This document shows positions 39,521 through 48,842 of a DNA stretch of 64,000 bases, piece by piece. Below the pieces are notes generated by a model. It saw only the letters and a program-made list of their open reading frames with translations, was not told where the DNA came from and did not search any database. The DNA comes from a virus, in the IMG/VR virus record IMGVR_UViG_3300025529_000001, positions 1 to 64,000 of that record. One strand, written 5' to 3'. How positions within the stretch are numbered: position 1 is the stretch's first letter; each line of letters starts with the position of its first letter. Both the position numbers and the translations under genes were made by a program.

Positions 39521-40297
39521 TCAATTTAACTCATTCAATCTCTGATTGGTTATATCTACTGCTTTCTTATTTAAGTCACAACCTATGTAATTCCTTCCTA
39601 ATTCCTTAGCAACTACTAAGCTTGTGCCACTACCACAGAAAAAATCAGCTACTAAATCCCCTTCATTCGTACTTGCTAATATAATTCTCTCAATAAGTTC
39701 TTTTGGTTTTTGCGTATTATAATCGACTCTTTCTTTAGATTGACTGTTTAAAATGCTAATTTCCCACACATCTCTCATAGCCTTTTTTCTTTCCTCTGAT
39801 ATATATTGTTGTTTTAACTTTCCATCATCCTCTTTTTTAGAAAACCTACTACCTTTGTGTTTTGACTTTTCACTAAAATCTTCATATTGGATATTGTATA
39901 TGTAATTATTTGATTTTGAATATCTTAAAATATTGTCGTGACTTCTTACAAAGTCTTTTCCAGAATTTGTCCATCTTGAATAAGACCATATAATTTCATT
40001 TCTAAAATTATCTTCACCAAATATTTTATCCATTTCAATTTTTATGTAATGTACTAATCTCCAATCCATTTGCAAATAAATTGTTCCTGTTTCTTTTAAA
40101 ACTCTAAACATTTCTATTAATCTTGGTTTATACCATTCTATAGCTTTTTTCGTGTCTCCTAAATTGTCATTATAGTCTCTAAATTTCTTTCTAGTATTGT
40201 AAAGGATATCACAATATATTAAATCCACCGTATTATCATTTAAATTTTTAAGTAATTCTAAATTATCAGTTTGATATACCTTGTTTACTTCTATCAC
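39521..40297 (-). CDS. Beta-class (N6A/N4C-type) DNA methyltransferase homologue with atypical motif IV
   Basis: C-terminal AdoMet motif I FFCGSGTSLVVAKELGRNYIGCDLN. The N-terminal motif IV position reads DLIYCDILYN instead of D/S-P-P-Y/F. Confidence 0.65.
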   Translation of the reverse strand: MIEVNKVYQTDNLELLKNLNDNTVDLIYCDILYNTRKKFRDYNDNLGDTKKAIEWYKPRLIEMFRVLKETGTIYLQMDWRLVHYIKIEMDKIFGEDNFRNEIIWSYSRWTNSGKDFVRSHDNILRYSKSNNYIYNIQYEDFSEKSKHKGSRFSKKEDDGKLKQQYISEERKKAMRDVWEISILNSQSKERVDYNTQKPKELIERIILASTNEGDLVADFFCGSGTSLVVAKELGRNYIGCDLNKKAVDITNQRLNELN

Positions 40298-40386
40298 AAA
40301 TACTTCCCTCCTTCTTTATAAAGTATTTATTTTTTATCAATATTTACAAAAAATCTTTGGTCGCTTTCCATTTGTCCAACTATGGT

Positions 40387-40620
40387 CTAATTATCCCCTT
40401 CATTTTTTGCATATCCATTTCTTAATTCACTATTTAAATCTTTTATATTATCTTTTATAATATTTAATTCGTCAATCAATTTACATAAATCGTTTATGTT
40501 ATATGTGTGAGTTGCATTATTAACACTATCCACTCTAAAACTATAGCCATTTTTACTTGTTCTAACTATTTGACCAGTAAAACTTGTACCTTTAACTTTA
40601 AATTCTTTATAAAATTCCAT
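40387..40620 (-). CDS. Hypothetical protein
   Basis: 77-aa ORF with an AGGAGGAA RBS. Confidence 0.45.
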   Translation of the reverse strand: MEFYKEFKVKGTSFTGQIVRTSKNGYSFRVDSVNNATHTYNINDLCKLIDELNIIKDNIKDLNSELRNGYAKNEGDN

Positions 40621-40733
40621 TATTATTCCTCCTTTTTAAATCCTACTATTATGTTTTGTTTTTGCCATCATTTTCTTATTTGTTTCAACCTTACATACAA
40701 CGGAGTAGCTCACTATGATAAATAGAAGTTTTA

Positions 40734-40937
40734 TCAATCTCTTGGAAGAATTTCATTTAACATTTCAATGACCTCTACTTCTTTAATATCATTACCATTT
40801 GCATCTCTGACAAGTAGACTATGGTTTAAATCTAATTTATCTCCGTATGTAACAAGCACTTCTCTTCCATTGCCAACATCCCACATCAATCCCAAAACAT
40901 TATCACCATTTTTTACTGCATATTTAAACTTCGCCAT
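40734..40937 (-). CDS. Hypothetical protein
   Basis: 67-aa ORF with an AAGGAGAAA RBS. Confidence 0.45.
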   Translation of the reverse strand: MAKFKYAVKNGDNVLGLMWDVGNGREVLVTYGDKLDLNHSLLVRDANGNDIKEVEVIEMLNEILPRD

Positions 40938-40984
40938 ATTAAATTTCTCCTTTTACTAATTTATAAATTAAAAGTTTCATCAAT

Positions 40985-41200
40985 TTATTTAAAATTTTTT
41001 ATCATATCTTGTAGTTCTTCTATTACGTCTTTCTGACCTTTATAATAGAAAGAATCATCATAATCCTCTCTGTCTTCTGCATCTTTAATACATCTTTCAG
41101 ACCTTTTAATAAATTTGTTCAATAAATCATTAAATTTTTCTGGGTCTATAATAACGTAACCTTTTTCCTCTCCATATTGACCATCTTTCACAATTATCAC
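40985..41200 (-). CDS. Hypothetical protein
   Basis: 71-aa ORF with an AGAGGTGA RBS. Confidence 0.45.
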   Translation of the reverse strand: MIIVKDGQYGEEKGYVIIDPEKFNDLLNKFIKRSERCIKDAEDREDYDDSFYYKGQKDVIEELQDMIKNFK

Positions 41201-41226
41201 CTCTTGATAAATTATTTATTTTTTAT

Positions 41227-41964
41227 TCACAGTTTATTAATTCTAGGTACAATGATTTCGTCAATATATTCCTGTTTTGTTTCAGTGGCAATCCATTGTC
41301 TACCCAATTTGATACATGATTCTATTTCTGTACCACTACCAGCAAACGGAATATATACCAATTCACCTTTATTGCTGTGTGCTTCAACGATAATATTCCC
41401 AAGTTCAATTTTCTTCTGTGTTTTATGACTTGTTCTTTCATCTTTTGTCATACTTCTCTGAATATCCCAATAGTTTCTCATCTGTTTACCATTATTGTAT
41501 TTCTTTAAGTCATCATGGTTAAAAGTCCAATCCTTATCACCATTACAGTACCATAAAATAAATTCTGTTGAATGTGCATACCCTCTTCTTGATACATTTG
41601 GTGGGGCATCTCTCTTCACCCATGTAATCATATCTATAAACTTCATTCCAGTTTCATCTAATAATGATTTCATATCAAAAATAGATTCTCTTGTACCATA
41701 AACAAGAATTGAGCCGCTTTCCTTTAATATCCTTTTAGACTCACTTATCCACTGTCTGCTAAACTCTAAATATTTTTCTTTTGAGTCAAAAATATCCCAA
41801 TCCTCACTTAAGGTTTGTATATTACCATGTGACTTACCTTTAAGTGGTTTTTTCTTTGCGATACCATAGGGTGGGTCGCATATCATTAATGATATTGATG
41901 AATCATCAAGTTTTTCCATAAAAGATACACAATCTTCATTATAAACTTTATTTAATTCTATCAT
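41227..41964 (-). CDS. Beta-class DNA methyltransferase (DPPY; probably N6-adenine)
   Basis: Motif IV LMICDPPYGI near the N-terminus and motif I IPFAGSGTEIESCIKLGRQWIATE near the C-terminus. Confidence 0.8.
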   Translation of the reverse strand: MIELNKVYNEDCVSFMEKLDDSSISLMICDPPYGIAKKKPLKGKSHGNIQTLSEDWDIFDSKEKYLEFSRQWISESKRILKESGSILVYGTRESIFDMKSLLDETGMKFIDMITWVKRDAPPNVSRRGYAHSTEFILWYCNGDKDWTFNHDDLKKYNNGKQMRNYWDIQRSMTKDERTSHKTQKKIELGNIIVEAHSNKGELVYIPFAGSGTEIESCIKLGRQWIATETKQEYIDEIIVPRINKL

Positions 41965-42017
41965 TATATCACATCCTAGATGTATTTATTTTAATATTAG
42001 TAAATAAAACTCGCATT

Positions 42018-42230
42018 TTATTCAATAGGATAAAGTCCTGTAATATTAGAATATTTAACTAGCAACATTTGCTCCTTTTCTTCATTCCAAAATGCACTTA
42101 ATCCATTGGGGTTGAAGTTTTCACATACACCAACAAACTCATTTTCTTTTTCATAATTATATTTATTGTTCGTCTTTTTATAGAAAACTAAATATTTACC
42201 ATTACCAATATTATAAGAATTTTTCCTCAC
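42018..42230 (-). CDS. Hypothetical protein
   Basis: 70-aa ORF. Confidence 0.4.
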   Translation of the reverse strand: MRKNSYNIGNGKYLVFYKKTNNKYNYEKENEFVGVCENFNPNGLSAFWNEEKEQMLLVKYSNITGLYPIE

Positions 42231-42301
42231 ATTGTTTCACCTCTGTATAAAAGAAAATTTTTATTAAAATTTATTAATGAATAAGATTATTAACTGTCTT
42301 T

Positions 42302-43175
42302 TTATATACTAAACACATTTAACCATTCTTCGTTAAAATCTTTTCTCTTACCAGAGATTCCACCTTTACCCCTTTTACTAACAATTAAATGTGCGTTATC
42401 CGTCATTTTATACCCTTCTGAAACATAAATCTTACTTTTTTTCTTATGCAATTTAATAATTGATAATAATTTATGTATATAAGAATTTACATCAAAATCA
42501 AAACCATAACCTGCTGCATTTTTATATGGTGGGTCAATGTACACTATACTATTATTATCAAAGTTACTATGTCGTTTATATCACCATAATATCCAAACAA
42601 TCCTTCCATTTTTTCCAAAATAATCTCTACTCTTTTAAATAATGTTTCTGGCATCGGCATCATAGGATTTACAGGGCTTTTCCTATTGGATGTTTCTGTT
42701 GGCAACCAATAATTTCTAAAACTTATATTCTGCCATTTATTATTTTCAACCCATATAGCTTTTGAGCCAAATGCACATGCTTGAAGAATTAAGAATTTAT
42801 AAACCATATTATCAAACAATCCATCGTTAGCAGGTTGTTTCGCCATTTCTTCTGCATATAATTTAATTTTTGTAATATCTTTAGGAATACTGTTTATGTA
42901 AAACTTAAATACATCTATGCTAAAAGTTCCATCACCGATTTTCTGCCAAAATAATCCCCAAGGCGATTTATCTACCATGATTATATTGCTAGGATTTACA
43001 CCTCTATTAACCAATTCAATAGAAATTGCTCCACTACCACAACATAAATCATAAAATTTTGTTTCTTCATTTATTCCATTTTCTTTGAAGAAAATGTCGA
43101 CAATATCTTTTGCGATACGCTGTTTACCGCCTTGATATGCACATGGTATTGTTAATTTATTCTTTTTTTAGCCAT
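42302..43175 (-). pseudogene. Alpha-class (Dam-like) DNA adenine methyltransferase interrupted by two frameshifts
   Basis: ATG at 43175 then an A7 run. The 0 frame stops after 7 codons (MAKKRIN*). The -1 frame continues KKNKLTIPCAYQGGKQRIAKDIV...FYDLCCGSGAISIEL (motif I). A second frame change near 42575..42590 leads to ...NNSIVYIDPPYKNAAGYGF (motif IV). Confidence 0.65.
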
Positions 43176-43226
43176 AATACACCTCGCTACACAATTATTC
43201 ATTGTATTCGATAAAAATTCATTTTA

Positions 43227-43706
43227 TTAATCTTCTACAACGGTAAATCTATCATCTTTTCGCCAACCATAGTTATATGGTTTGATAGTGTTCTGTACTA
43301 AATTTAAGCATAATCCCAACATATCTTTTATGAATTGCTCTTTTTCATCACCCCTTACACCCTCGTCATCAAAACTCCACATTTGGATTGCCTGTAATGT
43401 ATCGCATCCACTACAAGAGCCATATCCAACATATGTCATTAAGTATTCGGATTCAGAAGGCTGATATGTATTTTGTGGAATTATGTATAACAATGTTCCT
43501 TGATAATCTCCGTTATCGATTTCTGTTATATTTTCAGAATCAAACTTATCACCATAATAATCATCTTCATCATTAAAGATAATATCTACTACTTTTACAA
43601 CTAAGTCTTTATATGAAGCATTATTATATTCTGCGAAGTTATCTTCAATGTCTTTTCGTAGTTTATCTTTGTTTTTATTCCATTGTTCAATACAAAATTT
43701 TAACAT
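43227..43706 (-). CDS. Hypothetical protein
   Basis: 159-aa ORF containing GYGSCSGCDTLQ. No family recognised. Confidence 0.45.
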   Translation of the reverse strand: MLKFCIEQWNKNKDKLRKDIEDNFAEYNNASYKDLVVKVVDIIFNDEDDYYGDKFDSENITEIDNGDYQGTLLYIIPQNTYQPSESEYLMTYVGYGSCSGCDTLQAIQMWSFDDEGVRGDEKEQFIKDMLGLCLNLVQNTIKPYNYGWRKDDRFTVVED

Positions 43707-43742
43707 AATATCCTCTCCTTGATAAAATTATCCTTTAATTTA

Positions 43743-44456
43743 TTATGTATTTTTTACTTGTTGTCCAATTCTTTCACATGCTTTTATGTAATATTCTTTA
43801 TCTAACTCGAAAGCTATAAAATTACGATTTAATTCTTTACATGCGTGTGCCAAACTTCCACTACCACTAAATGGCTCTAGTAAAATGTCGCCTTCATTAC
43901 TATGTATCTTAACTAAATCTTTAATTAATTCTAATGGTTTTTCCGTAGGATGTATTCTTTCTTTGCTATGTACTACAGGATATTCAAAAATTGCATTTTC
44001 ATATGTATCACGCTGTCTATTAAACGTCCAACCATTACCCTTTGTTGCCCATAGTGCAAATTCACAAGAATTAACATATAGTCTATCTCTATTTCTTGGC
44101 ATGGGGTTAGATTTCTTCCATATAATCATTTGCTTGATTAAATATCCTTTTTCTTCTAGTTTATCTTTTATATAACTCATATTTTTCCAACTGTTAAAAA
44201 TTACAATGTTTCCACCTTTTTTAAGCAATTTATCAGCATAATCAATCCATGCAGTAAGGTCAAAATCTTTATCCCATTCTCCGAAGTCAATACCTTCTCT
44301 GCCCATTGTCTTAAAGTTATTATCTTGACTTACATTAAAAGGAGGGTCGGTAATAATATTATCTACGAAACTTCCATATTTATTAAATAATCTCTCCATG
44401 CCCTCAATGCAATCCATATTATAAATTTTATTCAATACTTCTTGTATATTACTCAT
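43743..44456 (-). CDS. Beta-class DNA methyltransferase (DPPF)
   Basis: Start set at MSNIQEVLNKIYNMDCIEG (RBS GAAAGGA). Motif IV NIITDPPFNV and motif I LEPFSGSGSLAHACKELNRNFIAFE. Confidence 0.8.
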   Translation of the reverse strand: MSNIQEVLNKIYNMDCIEGMERLFNKYGSFVDNIITDPPFNVSQDNNFKTMGREGIDFGEWDKDFDLTAWIDYADKLLKKGGNIVIFNSWKNMSYIKDKLEEKGYLIKQMIIWKKSNPMPRNRDRLYVNSCEFALWATKGNGWTFNRQRDTYENAIFEYPVVHSKERIHPTEKPLELIKDLVKIHSNEGDILLEPFSGSGSLAHACKELNRNFIAFELDKEYYIKACERIGQQVKNT

Positions 44457-44475
44457 TGTATCAATTCCTTTCACA

Positions 44476-44552
44476 CAATTCTTACGTAAGGAAGCCACTG
44501 GCTTTAGCCACGTGGAGGAATTGCGTATTTTAAACACGCTACGTAAGAATTG
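44476..44552 (-). repeat. Nested inverted repeats at the 3' boundary of the iscB module (candidate element end / terminator)
   Basis: Outer perfect 13-bp inverted repeat caattcttacgta (44476..44488) / tacgtaagaattg (44540..44552), which spans the iscB stop codon. Inner hairpin CCACTGGCT-tt-AGCCAcGTGG (44495..44515). Confidence 0.6.
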
Positions 44553-45819
44553 CTACCTCCTTTCTATAACTATACCCATCAAAGTGTTGTACAACTGAAA
44601 AATATTTATGATTTACACCTTGTACAACTCTTTGACATTCCTTGTCTTTAATATCAAAATTACCTGATTTTCTACATGCAACTTCTCCGTACCAAATGCC
44701 TTTATATTTTCCTTTTGGTATTTCAGCTTTAACCATATCTCCTGTTTGAAAACCAAAGAAATATTTTTGTCTTGCTAAATATCCCCTCGGAAAGCCGTAT
44801 TTATCTAAATTTGTTCTACAATGACTGCCTCGACCTTTTGCCTTTATGTATAAAACATTTTTAGTTTTAAAATATAATTTATCTGGTGTGCTTTGCCCTA
44901 CACAACAAGCATCAAAATAATGTTCTTTTGGCAATCCTAATTTGATTCTATTCATTTTTGTTAGAGCACCTGTACCACATTCTACTTCTAAACCACTATT
45001 GTTAAGCAAATTATAAACTTTCCATCTTGTAGAATTTACTACAGAAGAATCTTTTAATGTTTGTTTAACTTGTTTTTGCATATCAGGATAACCAAATTCT
45101 TCTGCTGTCATATTACCTTTCTTCTGGTTACACTCATGGCAAGCTAAACAGAGATTATCAATTCTGTTTGTTCCACCCCTTGATTTTGGTATTATATGTT
45201 CTACTTCTAATGGGATGTTTTCTTTTCCACAATAACAACATTTTCTACCAAACTTTTCAAGTAAATATTCTCTAATTTCATACCCTTGAAGTGTACCTTG
45301 TTGGTACTCAATGCCACTTATTTCAGGATTTTGCATTAATTGAGTATCAAACTTAACATTTTCATAAGATATGTGAGTTAATGGAATTAATTTTTGTAAC
45401 CTATTAACCCATGTTTTTATATTATTAACCCTACTTTCTAAACTTGGTGGTATCCATCCTTCTTTTCTTTTTCTATTTAAAAATCTTGGTTTTCTATATC
45501 TTGTTCTTCTATTTCTTCTGTTGCGTCTAAACATACGTCTATCATCAAGTTTCTTTTTAATATCTGTTCTGTGGTCTATTTGAGCTAACCATATTACATT
45601 GTTATTTTGTAGTATAGCTAATCCTGTATGCTTACTACCGTAATCAATTTTTAATCTATATTTTTTCTTGTTTTTAGTGTCTTCTACTGATTTTTTTAAT
45701 ATTATCGTAAATGGGTATTTTTTAAATATTGTTGCTTTGCCTTGTTTAAGCAGTTTTCTTGCAACTGCTTCGTGGCAAGGTGATAATGGTTTTTTATTTG
45801 CATCTAATACAAATACCAT
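44539..45819 (-). CDS. iscB: IscB-type RNA-guided nuclease (RuvC with inserted HNH, PLMP N-terminus)
   Basis: Domain order read from the translation is as follows. PLMP-like MVFVLDANKKPLSPCHEAVARKLL. RuvC-I KIDYGSKHTGLAIL. Arg-rich bridge helix RRMFRRNRRNRRTRYRKPRF. RuvC-II ISYENVKFD. HNH CCYCG..LEVEHIIPKSRGG..NLCLACHECNQKKG. RuvC-III KEHYFDACCVG. A C-terminal beta-rich domain follows. RBS AAAGGAGAAA upstream. Confidence 0.8.
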   Translation of the reverse strand: MVFVLDANKKPLSPCHEAVARKLLKQGKATIFKKYPFTIILKKSVEDTKNKKKYRLKIDYGSKHTGLAILQNNNVIWLAQIDHRTDIKKKLDDRRMFRRNRRNRRTRYRKPRFLNRKRKEGWIPPSLESRVNNIKTWVNRLQKLIPLTHISYENVKFDTQLMQNPEISGIEYQQGTLQGYEIREYLLEKFGRKCCYCGKENIPLEVEHIIPKSRGGTNRIDNLCLACHECNQKKGNMTAEEFGYPDMQKQVKQTLKDSSVVNSTRWKVYNLLNNSGLEVECGTGALTKMNRIKLGLPKEHYFDACCVGQSTPDKLYFKTKNVLYIKAKGRGSHCRTNLDKYGFPRGYLARQKYFFGFQTGDMVKAEIPKGKYKGIWYGEVACRKSGNFDIKDKECQRVVQGVNHKYFSVVQHFDGYSYRKEVAILT

Positions 45820-46057
45820 AGGAATTTCTCCTTTCTCTGCTTACGCAGGTAATGTCCTTCTCGACAAAGTTATCTATGTTTGTATGTACAACACACTGGC
45901 TTAACCCACTACACCTGTTTAATGTTGTACGACAGGGTTTAAGACTGAAGGAGCATCCTAAAGTGTCATAACATAGATAACGTAGGTTCTGTTTCAAACC
46001 TTAGTCTGGTCAACATAAGGCTATCAAGCCCACGACTTTAGTCGTTGGGTAGTTGAC
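45820..46057 (-). ncRNA. Candidate omega RNA (IscB guide/scaffold RNA)
   Basis: ORF-free and visibly GC-richer than its surroundings. Lies between the promoter at 46064..46092 and the iscB RBS. Contains the hairpin CCCAaCGAC/GTCGTGGG (46029..46049), a perfect 12-nt long-range complement (45869..45880 with 45970..45981), and AGACTAAGG/CCTTcAGTCT pairing. Exact ends and the guide segment were not determined. Confidence 0.55.
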
Positions 46058-46063
46058 TATTAT

Positions 46064-46092
46064 ATTATATCATTATTTACTATGTTTGTCAA
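46064..46092 (-). promoter_or_regulatory. SigA-type phage promoter driving the omega-RNA/iscB/methyltransferase unit
   Basis: Minus strand reads TTGACA-aacatagtaaataatga(17)-TATAAT with TGa. The spacer closely resembles those of other promoters in this window. Confidence 0.6.
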
Positions 46093-46228
46093 TGGGTAAC
46101 ATCATTAAACAGTTTTCGGTTTTCATTATTGTTCCGAATCAATATATAAGTATCTTCGCCACCTTGTTTCTCAATAACACTTAAACTGTTTAAAATGTCT
46201 AAAACTTTTTGTTTTTCATTTTCCAATG

Positions 46229-48813: not shown

Positions 48814-48842
48814 ATTATACTACAAAATTTATATTTTGTCAA
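48814..48842 (-). promoter_or_regulatory. SigA-type promoter
   Basis: Minus strand reads TTGACA-17 nt-TATAAT. Confidence 0.55.

Follow-up and report, generated by a model that had tools for sequence, protein, structure and literature searches.

A compact IscB element lies at the start site of a phage promoter in the viral DNA analyzed here, a stretch of 64,000 nucleotides (nt) that we call the window (IMG/VR record IMGVR_UViG_3300025529_000001, positions 1 to 64,000). Positions 44475..46057 are a precise insertion between positions -1 and +1 of a sigma-70-type promoter that lies ahead of a DNA methyltransferase gene, and they hold an omega RNA scaffold, the iscB gene, and a structured 3' end. 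The insertion is a non-autonomous IS200/IS605-type IscB element, of a kind that is already known but in a new copy. The best explanation of the locus, to which we assign a probability of roughly 70%, is that such an element may be retained, and may home, through cleavage directed by a guide taken from the flanking phage DNA; homing itself is plausible from the arrangement of the sequences. Feature coordinates are collected in Table 1.

Table 1. Positions of the IscB element, its parts, and adjoining phage features in the window
Feature	Position	Strand	Details
Whole element	44475..46057	-	1,583 bp
Alternative element limits	44473..46055	-	Allowed by a 2-nt GT ambiguity
Omega RNA scaffold (Rfam HEARO, RF02033)	45849..46057	-	155 bits; gathering score 83; E = 1e-32
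iscB	44539..45819	-	426 amino acids (aa); Pfam RRXRR (5e-75) and HNH
Presumed 16-nt guide/target	46058..46073	-	ATGATATAATATAATA; phage DNA directly 5' of the scaffold; overlaps the -10 box
Target-adjacent motif (TAM), GTGA	44471..44474	-	TCAC on the + strand; phage DNA directly after the element; once in the empty site
Palindrome, omega RNA end (right end, RE)	46029..46049		Bulged, imperfect; 8 nt from the terminus; AGCCCACGACTTTAGTCGTTGGG
Palindrome, iscB-distal end (left end, LE)	44495..44515		Bulged, imperfect; 20 nt from the terminus; AGCCACTGGCTTTAGCCACGTGG
Outer inverted repeat	44540-44552 / 44476-44488		Perfect, 13 bp; spans the iscB stop codon and encloses two inner hairpins
Adjoining phage promoter, consensus sigma-70 type	46064..46092	-	TTGACA 46092-46087; 17-nt spacer; TGnTATAAT 46072-46064
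Next upstream perfect promoter	48814..48842	-	Likely source of guide-bearing read-through
Native phage 5' untranslated region	44457-44474	-	GTGAAAGGAATTGATACA; holds the TAM and a ribosome-binding site; outside the element
N6/N4 DNA methyltransferase gene (phage)	43743..44456	-	Pfam N6_N4_Mtase (5e-39); ATG at 44456

Empty and occupied alleles define the insertion

The original prediction had proposed, from the geometry of the locus, an IS200/IS605-like insertion of about 1.6 kb between promoter and methyltransferase gene, made up of an omega-like leader and iscB, and had noted that a lack of empty alleles in related genomes would speak against it. To find relatives, we used the exact 159-aa downstream protein as a query in public assemblies, which yielded 12 contigs. 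Empty alleles, in which the promoter is joined directly to the same methyltransferase gene, were found in four independent metagenomic contigs (L042, L043, L045, and L047), and occupied alleles in three assemblies (JGI 3300002541, ENA ERZ795069, and Logan SRR5251418), each of which is 100% identical to the window across the region. The right flank of the empty-site contigs is 98.8-99.6% identical to that of the window, with 2.47 kb covered in the two longest contigs, and the 22 nt before the junction are identical between the window and the empty-site contigs. These empty sites and the defined ends described below bear out the predicted insertion, and both of its proposed components were found in it: the leader as a HEARO match and iscB as a gene with RRXRR and HNH domains.

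The empty-site alignment and BLAST junctions against L042, L043, L045, and L047 fix the element ends to within 2 nt. With a slash marking the junction, the empty site reads ...TATAATATAATA/GTGAAAGG... or, around the ambiguity, ...AATGATATAATATAATA GT GAAAGGAATTGATACAATG. The left junction of the occupied site reads ...ATAATA/GTCAAC... (at greater length, ...ATAATA/GTCAACTACCC...) and the right junction reads ...GAATTGT/GTGAAAGG... The 1,583-bp limits hold if the first scaffold base of the omega RNA is also that of the element. Comparison of empty and occupied sites revealed no target duplication at the element, only the 2-nt GT ambiguity, and in other copies similarity begins exactly at 46057 and stops within a few nt of 44475. 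The downstream limit first proposed, 44457, therefore lies 18 nt too far, since the element stops at 44475. On the minus strand, the order is promoter, six bases (ATAATA), HEARO, the iscB open reading frame (ORF), a 64-nt structured tail, and the ribosome-binding site and ATG of the methyltransferase gene, which now lies downstream of iscB and 1.58 kb from its promoter but adjoins that promoter in the empty-site contigs. The HEARO match covers the full Rfam model (positions 1-211 of 211) and stops 29 nt before the iscB ATG. That model lacks 3' elements (Meers et al., PMC10055086), and the scaffold probably extends to ~45820, just ahead of the iscB start codon.

Other routes to the empty site were less productive. 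Megablast and blastn searches with the 4.5-kb locus found no GenBank phage related closely enough to supply an empty site; in IMG/VR, relatives of the 159-aa protein encoded downstream were only ~50% identical and not syntenic at the site; the upstream 111-aa protein had no IMG/VR relatives; and exact searches of IMG/VR for the empty and the occupied junctions gave no match. A contig break at the junction (L052/L038), considered as a sign of mixed alleles, was uninformative.

The target of a presumed flank-derived guide and its motif are intact in the empty site

The presumed guide, whose 16-nt length we take to be that of OgeuIscB, would form the 5' end of the omega RNA (5'-AUGAUAUAAUAUAAUA-3'), ahead of the scaffold at 46057..~45820. 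Its position follows Meers et al. (PMC10055086). At the opposite end of the element stands GTGA, which we had also considered as the last 4 nt of the element; this is ruled out, since the empty site keeps GTGA, which makes the motif part of the target rather than of the element. A fixed flanking motif was found on one side only: GTGA on the right, with variable flanks on the left. After the target comes GTGAAA in the empty site but GTCAAC in the occupied one, as seen in the reconstructed empty site (...ATGATATAATATAATAGTGAAAGG...) and in the occupied junction (...ATAGTCAAC...). OgeuIscB recognizes the TAM NWRRNA (PMC12660989), a pattern that the empty-site GTGAAA of the window phage fits. Within the window, the sole site that differs from target plus TAM by three or fewer mismatches is the occupied site itself, which carries GTCA. 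An IscB that cleaves empty sites but leaves its own copy uncut would be expected to show this geometry of target and TAM. The proposal that the guide derives from flanking phage DNA agrees with the 22-nt match between flank and empty site and with a TAM that the occupied site lacks and the empty site retains. Several other promoters repeat the first 10 nt of the guide (ATGATATAAT), but the full target with GTGA is present at no other site in the window.

The IscB nuclease is intact

The iscB product matches the RRXRR profile over its full length (1-174 of 174) as well as HNH families, and solved IscB structures in the Protein Data Bank (PDB) were matched down to E = 1.7e-46. In an alignment to OgeuIscB (7UTN), the catalytic residues of the RuvC and HNH domains are intact: (i) D59 aligns with OgeuIscB D61; (ii) the RuvC-II glutamate (at about residue 153, in ISYENVKF) aligns with the glutamate of VVLELNRF; (iii) E207-H208 aligns with OgeuIscB H247-H248; and (iv) H300/D303 align with the DHYLDAYC motif. 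The nuclease looks functional, and a nuclease-dead regulator comparable to TldR is excluded by the intact catalytic residues. Fourteen other copies are intact ORFs of 426-429 aa with ratios of nonsynonymous to synonymous substitution (dN/dS) of 0.10-0.16 relative to the window copy, and the nuclease is under strong purifying selection across copies.

The element belongs to a multi-copy family with miniature derivatives

The exact first 30 nt of the element occur in 11 IMG/VR viral contigs, among them full copies that are 86-93% identical as well as miniatures, in which both ends are joined without iscB. Full or miniature copies are also held by metagenome-assembled genomes of Clostridiaceae and Bacillota, and copies occur in genomes assembled from anaerobic digesters (L068 and L069). 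A 22-nt motif taken from the 3' end, when used to scan metagenomes, recovered 84 loci, several of them labelled as bioreactor metagenomes. Across all loci, 46 distinct left flanks join the element exactly at GTCAAC; there are 74 distinct right flanks, and in 71 of the 73 that were parsed GTGA stands directly after the element, followed by divergence. The family is multi-copy and mobile, with conserved ends. Genomes of Anoxybacillus were set aside as carriers: their match to the omega RNA is confined to its first 33 nt, and the element that they hold is a different one.

Many of the miniatures consist of the ends only (L054, L055, L073, L093, L104, L107, L123, L137, and others). By a rough motif-based estimate they measure from ~36 to 660 nt, the end hairpins appear fused in the smallest, and the group is similar to the palindrome-associated miniature elements known for IS200/IS605. 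At many insertion sites the element seems to split a Shine-Dalgarno sequence, for instance ...GGAG/GTGA... (L056, L078, L129, and L142), probably because GTGA is part of the Bacillota ribosome-binding consensus GGAGGTGA; an insertion of this sort would part a gene from a portion of its ribosome-binding site.

No TnpA was detected in the element or in the 64-kb window, either by tblastn with a Pfam-verified Y1_Tnp query (best E-value, 0.72) or with an IS608 TnpA as query, and the element is therefore classed as non-autonomous. A TnpA in L111, examined as a possible cognate, is part of a separate tnpA-tnpB insertion sequence with unrelated ends. Around 98.5% of iscB loci are likewise non-autonomous (PMC10055086).

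Both ends carry subterminal hairpins

All of the inverted repeats that the original prediction had listed are present, namely the nested pair at the downstream limit (the 13-bp outer repeat and the bulged hairpin within it) and the upstream hairpin, which doubles as the first stem-loop of the omega RNA. The two bulged palindromes are alike in shape, each with a TTTA loop and a one-base bulge, in keeping with the claim that subterminal hairpins mark them as IS200/IS605 ends. Their spacing from the termini resembles that of the IS608 palindromes (19 and 10 nt). The LE palindrome is kept in all copies, the RE hairpin shows a compensatory variant among copies (GACTAAAGTC to GGCTAAAGCC), and other copies preserve the outer repeat, with one G-T wobble. 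The 3' structure has a folding energy of -19.4 kcal/mol (z = -5.0), equalled by none of 200 shuffles. Neither end is an inverted copy of the other, i.e., there are no terminal inverted repeats, and the layout on the plus strand is TTTCAC/LE...RE(...GTTGAC)/. In the transposase convention the ends first assigned as upstream and downstream are reversed, the omega RNA end being RE and the 3' end of iscB being LE (PMC10055086). The attribution to an IS200/IS605-like element is sustained by the lack of a target duplication, the matching bulged hairpins, the conserved flanking motif, and the miniature derivatives.

Transcription of a guide-bearing RNA would depend on read-through

The consensus promoter recognized in the original prediction is present, with a score of 12/12 and an extended -10 element. 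Given the usual 7-nt spacing, its predicted transcription start is ~46057, the first base of the scaffold; transcripts of the adjoining promoter would therefore carry no guide, and guide-bearing RNA must come from read-through. The guide of IscB omega RNAs, which are bounded by RE, is encoded outside the element, and transcription must therefore start outside it (Meers et al., PMC10055086). No terminator-like site was predicted on the minus strand between the next upstream promoter (48814..48842) and 46092. Nor was a terminator predicted after the element, and the methyltransferase should therefore still be expressed.

Perfect TTGACA-N17-TATAAT promoters number 18 in the window, all on the minus strand and none on the plus strand, and many of them have a common extended consensus (TTGACAAACATAATAAATAATGATATAAT). 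Such promoters had been described as standing 15-45 nt from the genes that they serve. In a crude start-codon scan of the 16 other scorable promoters, this held for seven (14-32 nt) and failed for the remainder, six of which lie 82-93 nt and three >175 nt from a gene.

A model of RNA-guided retention and homing, and alternatives to it

We propose the following sequence of events. The element would first have reached the phage through single-strand transposition beside TCAC, catalyzed by TnpA supplied in trans by the host or by another element. Read-through from upstream phage promoters would then yield an omega RNA whose 5' 16 nt equal the phage -10 region, and the adjoining promoter would mainly yield guide-less scaffold and the mRNA of iscB and the methyltransferase. 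IscB loaded with the guide RNA would cut genomes in which the target is followed by GTGA, be they excision products or the empty sites of co-infecting relatives, and its own copy, with GTCA after the target, would be spared. Recombinational repair from an element-bearing genome would copy the element into the cut site, giving both retention and homing.

In favor of the model are the existence of occupied and empty alleles, the near-identical right flank, the logic of target and TAM, the intact nuclease, the upstream promoter with unobstructed read-through, and the parallel in cultured Ralstonia phages described below. Substitutions that separate the two alleles also cluster, five of the eight falling no more than 372 nt from the junction (p = 0.003, post hoc), which possibly resembles a co-conversion tract. 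Several points weigh against this model: (i) the abundant transcripts of the adjoining promoter should lack the guide, and the share of read-through may limit guide RNA; (ii) the guide has a single G and is otherwise all A/T, and could form a weak RNA-DNA hybrid; (iii) on the left flank, homology between occupied and empty phages spans 50 nt at 90% and is followed by a 661-bp difference, a mosaic pattern, and such poor homology would hinder two-sided recombinational repair; (iv) the clustering of substitutions involves few sites and came to attention only afterwards; (v) no cognate TnpA was found in the window or in any other locus searched; and (vi) cleavage, guide-bearing transcripts, and conversion are predictions from sequence.

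The alternative that survives best, which we consider unlikely, is that the element is a passive passenger, dropped by a host TnpA during infection and simply inherited, so that the polymorphism reflects recent transposition and IscB adds nothing to phage-to-phage spread because useful guide-bearing omega RNA is not made. Occurrence at many unrelated sites with a common 4-nt motif, together with the miniatures, is the signature of transposase-driven movement, and the start of the adjoining promoter on guide-less scaffold, the almost entirely A/T guide, and the restriction of the occupied allele to one phage lineage (three contigs identical across the region) would all fit. A mere passenger accords poorly, however, with an intact IscB under strong purifying selection across copies, with a target and TAM that are intact in empty sites and broken in occupied ones, and with upstream read-through that meets no predicted terminator; moreover, IscB is known to cut donor joints (Meers et al., PMC10055086).

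Another alternative, which we hold to be quite improbable, treats the nuclease as an inter-phage weapon: IscB would cut the methyltransferase promoter of relatives, excluding them or their local markers to the benefit of the carrier phage, and the element need not be copied across. Its logic of target and TAM equals that of homing, as do its sequence predictions; the poor left-flank homology would favor destruction over conversion; and phage homing endonucleases are documented to exclude competitors (reviewed in PMC13565253). Against this, the right flank, with 98.8-99.6% identity across as much as 2.47 kb, would make at least one-sided repair easy, and we saw no sign of a fitness benefit; from sequence alone, the weapon and homing are indistinguishable. 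That the arrangement is ancestral and that the inverted repeats near 44476-44552, which do fold strongly, serve only to terminate transcription ahead of the methyltransferase gene and after iscB, the outcome under which the ends could not have been defined, is scarcely credible, as empty sites exist and the ends are defined, the stem is not followed by a T-run and the terminator scan calls none there, the structure ends every copy, including miniatures without iscB, and the inner hairpin mirrors that of the opposite end.

Comparison with known systems

Several known systems resemble this element or its proposed homing. Among the closest are the ISGst5-type elements of Geobacillus stearothermophilus (Meers et al. 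2023, PMC10055086), which are also non-autonomous members of the IS200/IS605 family, with an omega RNA upstream of iscB that is bounded by RE, a guide from the flank, and a TAM at the other end. The TAM of G. stearothermophilus IscB, which cuts donor joints, is TTCAT (PMC10055086), related to (N)TCAC here on the transposase strand. Both systems are found in Bacillota, the closest cultured phage to that of the window being Geobacillus virus E3 (64.5% amino-acid identity in GyrB), which infects Geobacillus. They differ in that (i) the ISGst5-type copies are chromosomal, whereas the window copy lies in a large phage genome, exactly at a promoter start; (ii) the window element comes without an identified cognate TnpA; and (iii) the likely repair partner is a co-infecting phage here and the sister chromosome there. 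The OgeuIscB-omega RNA complex (PDB 7UTN and 7XHT) shares the domain order and catalytic residues, and its HEARO-type omega RNA likewise has a 5' guide and a 3' TAM. OgeuIscB is, however, a distant protein (E = 8.5e-27) of 496 aa versus 426 aa here, and the TAM of the window IscB is read from natural flanks. A compact IscB of 426 aa with a short TAM may be of interest for genome editing.

The homing endonuclease genes of phages, whether they stand free or are carried by introns (as in T4 Seg, Mob, and I-TevI), show the same presence or absence among close relatives, target the empty allele, have an occupied allele that is protected by its disrupted site, and are expected to spread by recombinational repair in co-infection. 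In contrast to them, the window element would recognize its target by a flank-derived RNA guide and a 4-nt motif rather than by protein, is bounded by transposon ends, and is found at dozens of sites that are unrelated. The genome had been described as crowded with intron homing endonucleases, a view that was not corroborated: at gathering thresholds, Rfam reported no group I or II introns in the whole window, only HEARO.

IscB and TnpB are known to retain transposons in bacterial chromosomes, whereas horizontal homing between co-infecting phages is treated as theoretical in a 2026 review (PMC13565253). That review describes such movement into co-infecting phages as 'transposon non-restorative homing', for which experimental support is limited to TnpB on plasmids; as proposed here, the orthologous empty site of a homologous phage or plasmid is cleaved by a nuclease of OMEGA type. 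The window differs in offering a natural IscB candidate in a phage, known from sequence, and in the literature searched we found no report of IscB homing in phages. The locus makes homing testable: its ends are exact, an empty site exists in nature, guide and TAM (GTGA) are predicted, and the family offers dozens of natural targets.

A parallel in cultured Ralstonia phages

An occupied/empty pair of the same kind was found among cultured phages. Ralstonia phage Claudette (L161, MT740731.2, 1682-3415) carries HEARO and IscB at ...GAGTGCCACT/GTCAAC...GACTG/ATGAGC..., and its congener Gervaise (L162, MT740740.1, ~880-890) has the precise empty site ...GAGTGCCACT/ATGAAAC..., with ATGA as the flanking motif. 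In Claudette and in Alix, which are cultured and virulent, HEARO (111 bits) and IscB lie between ssb and the next gene. Several other Ralstonia phages, some of them with much smaller genomes (~45 kb versus 57 kb), carry the 1.74-kb element at 98.8-99.7% identity. The Claudette/Gervaise pattern makes crosses feasible. That IscB elements spread among virulent phages by RNA-guided homing in co-infection, without a transposase, we put forward tentatively, as a possibility somewhat short of probable; if true, the same process would explain the occupied/empty pairs in Ralstonia phages, and in the window phage, whose element has taken the +1 position, a strong promoter would drive the nuclease while only read-through carried the guide, which would tie guide production to upstream transcription.

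We found IscB homologues in 71 GenBank phage records. In the best-matching ones, the label reads HNH endonuclease or hypothetical protein, or annotation is absent; the Ralstonia phage gene, too, is annotated as HNH endonuclease or hypothetical protein. Phage genes labelled "HNH endonuclease" can thus be IscB guide-RNA nucleases.

Neighboring genes

Upstream of the promoter, a 45-aa ORF (46089..46226, minus strand) corresponds to the first 41 codons of a 131-aa gene, as seen by comparison with L042 (357..1193). The ~661 bp missing relative to the empty-site phages comprise the remainder of that gene and a 76-aa gene, and the deletion stops 2-3 nt before the -35 box.

Downstream, the methyltransferase gene heads a run of such genes (39521..44456, minus strand) with N6_N4_Mtase matches at 43743-44456, 41227-41964, and 39521-40297 and a broken D12-class gene; the run is probably an anti-restriction methylation module. 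The Dam-like D12-class gene (42302..43175, minus strand) is intact, at 291 aa, in five aligned contigs (L041-L044 and L046), and in the window two 1-nt deletions (near 43163 and 42561) leave ORFs of 156 and 80 aa. The first deletion is common to all three IscB-bearing assemblies and the second is covered by two, so the window copy is probably a real pseudogene.

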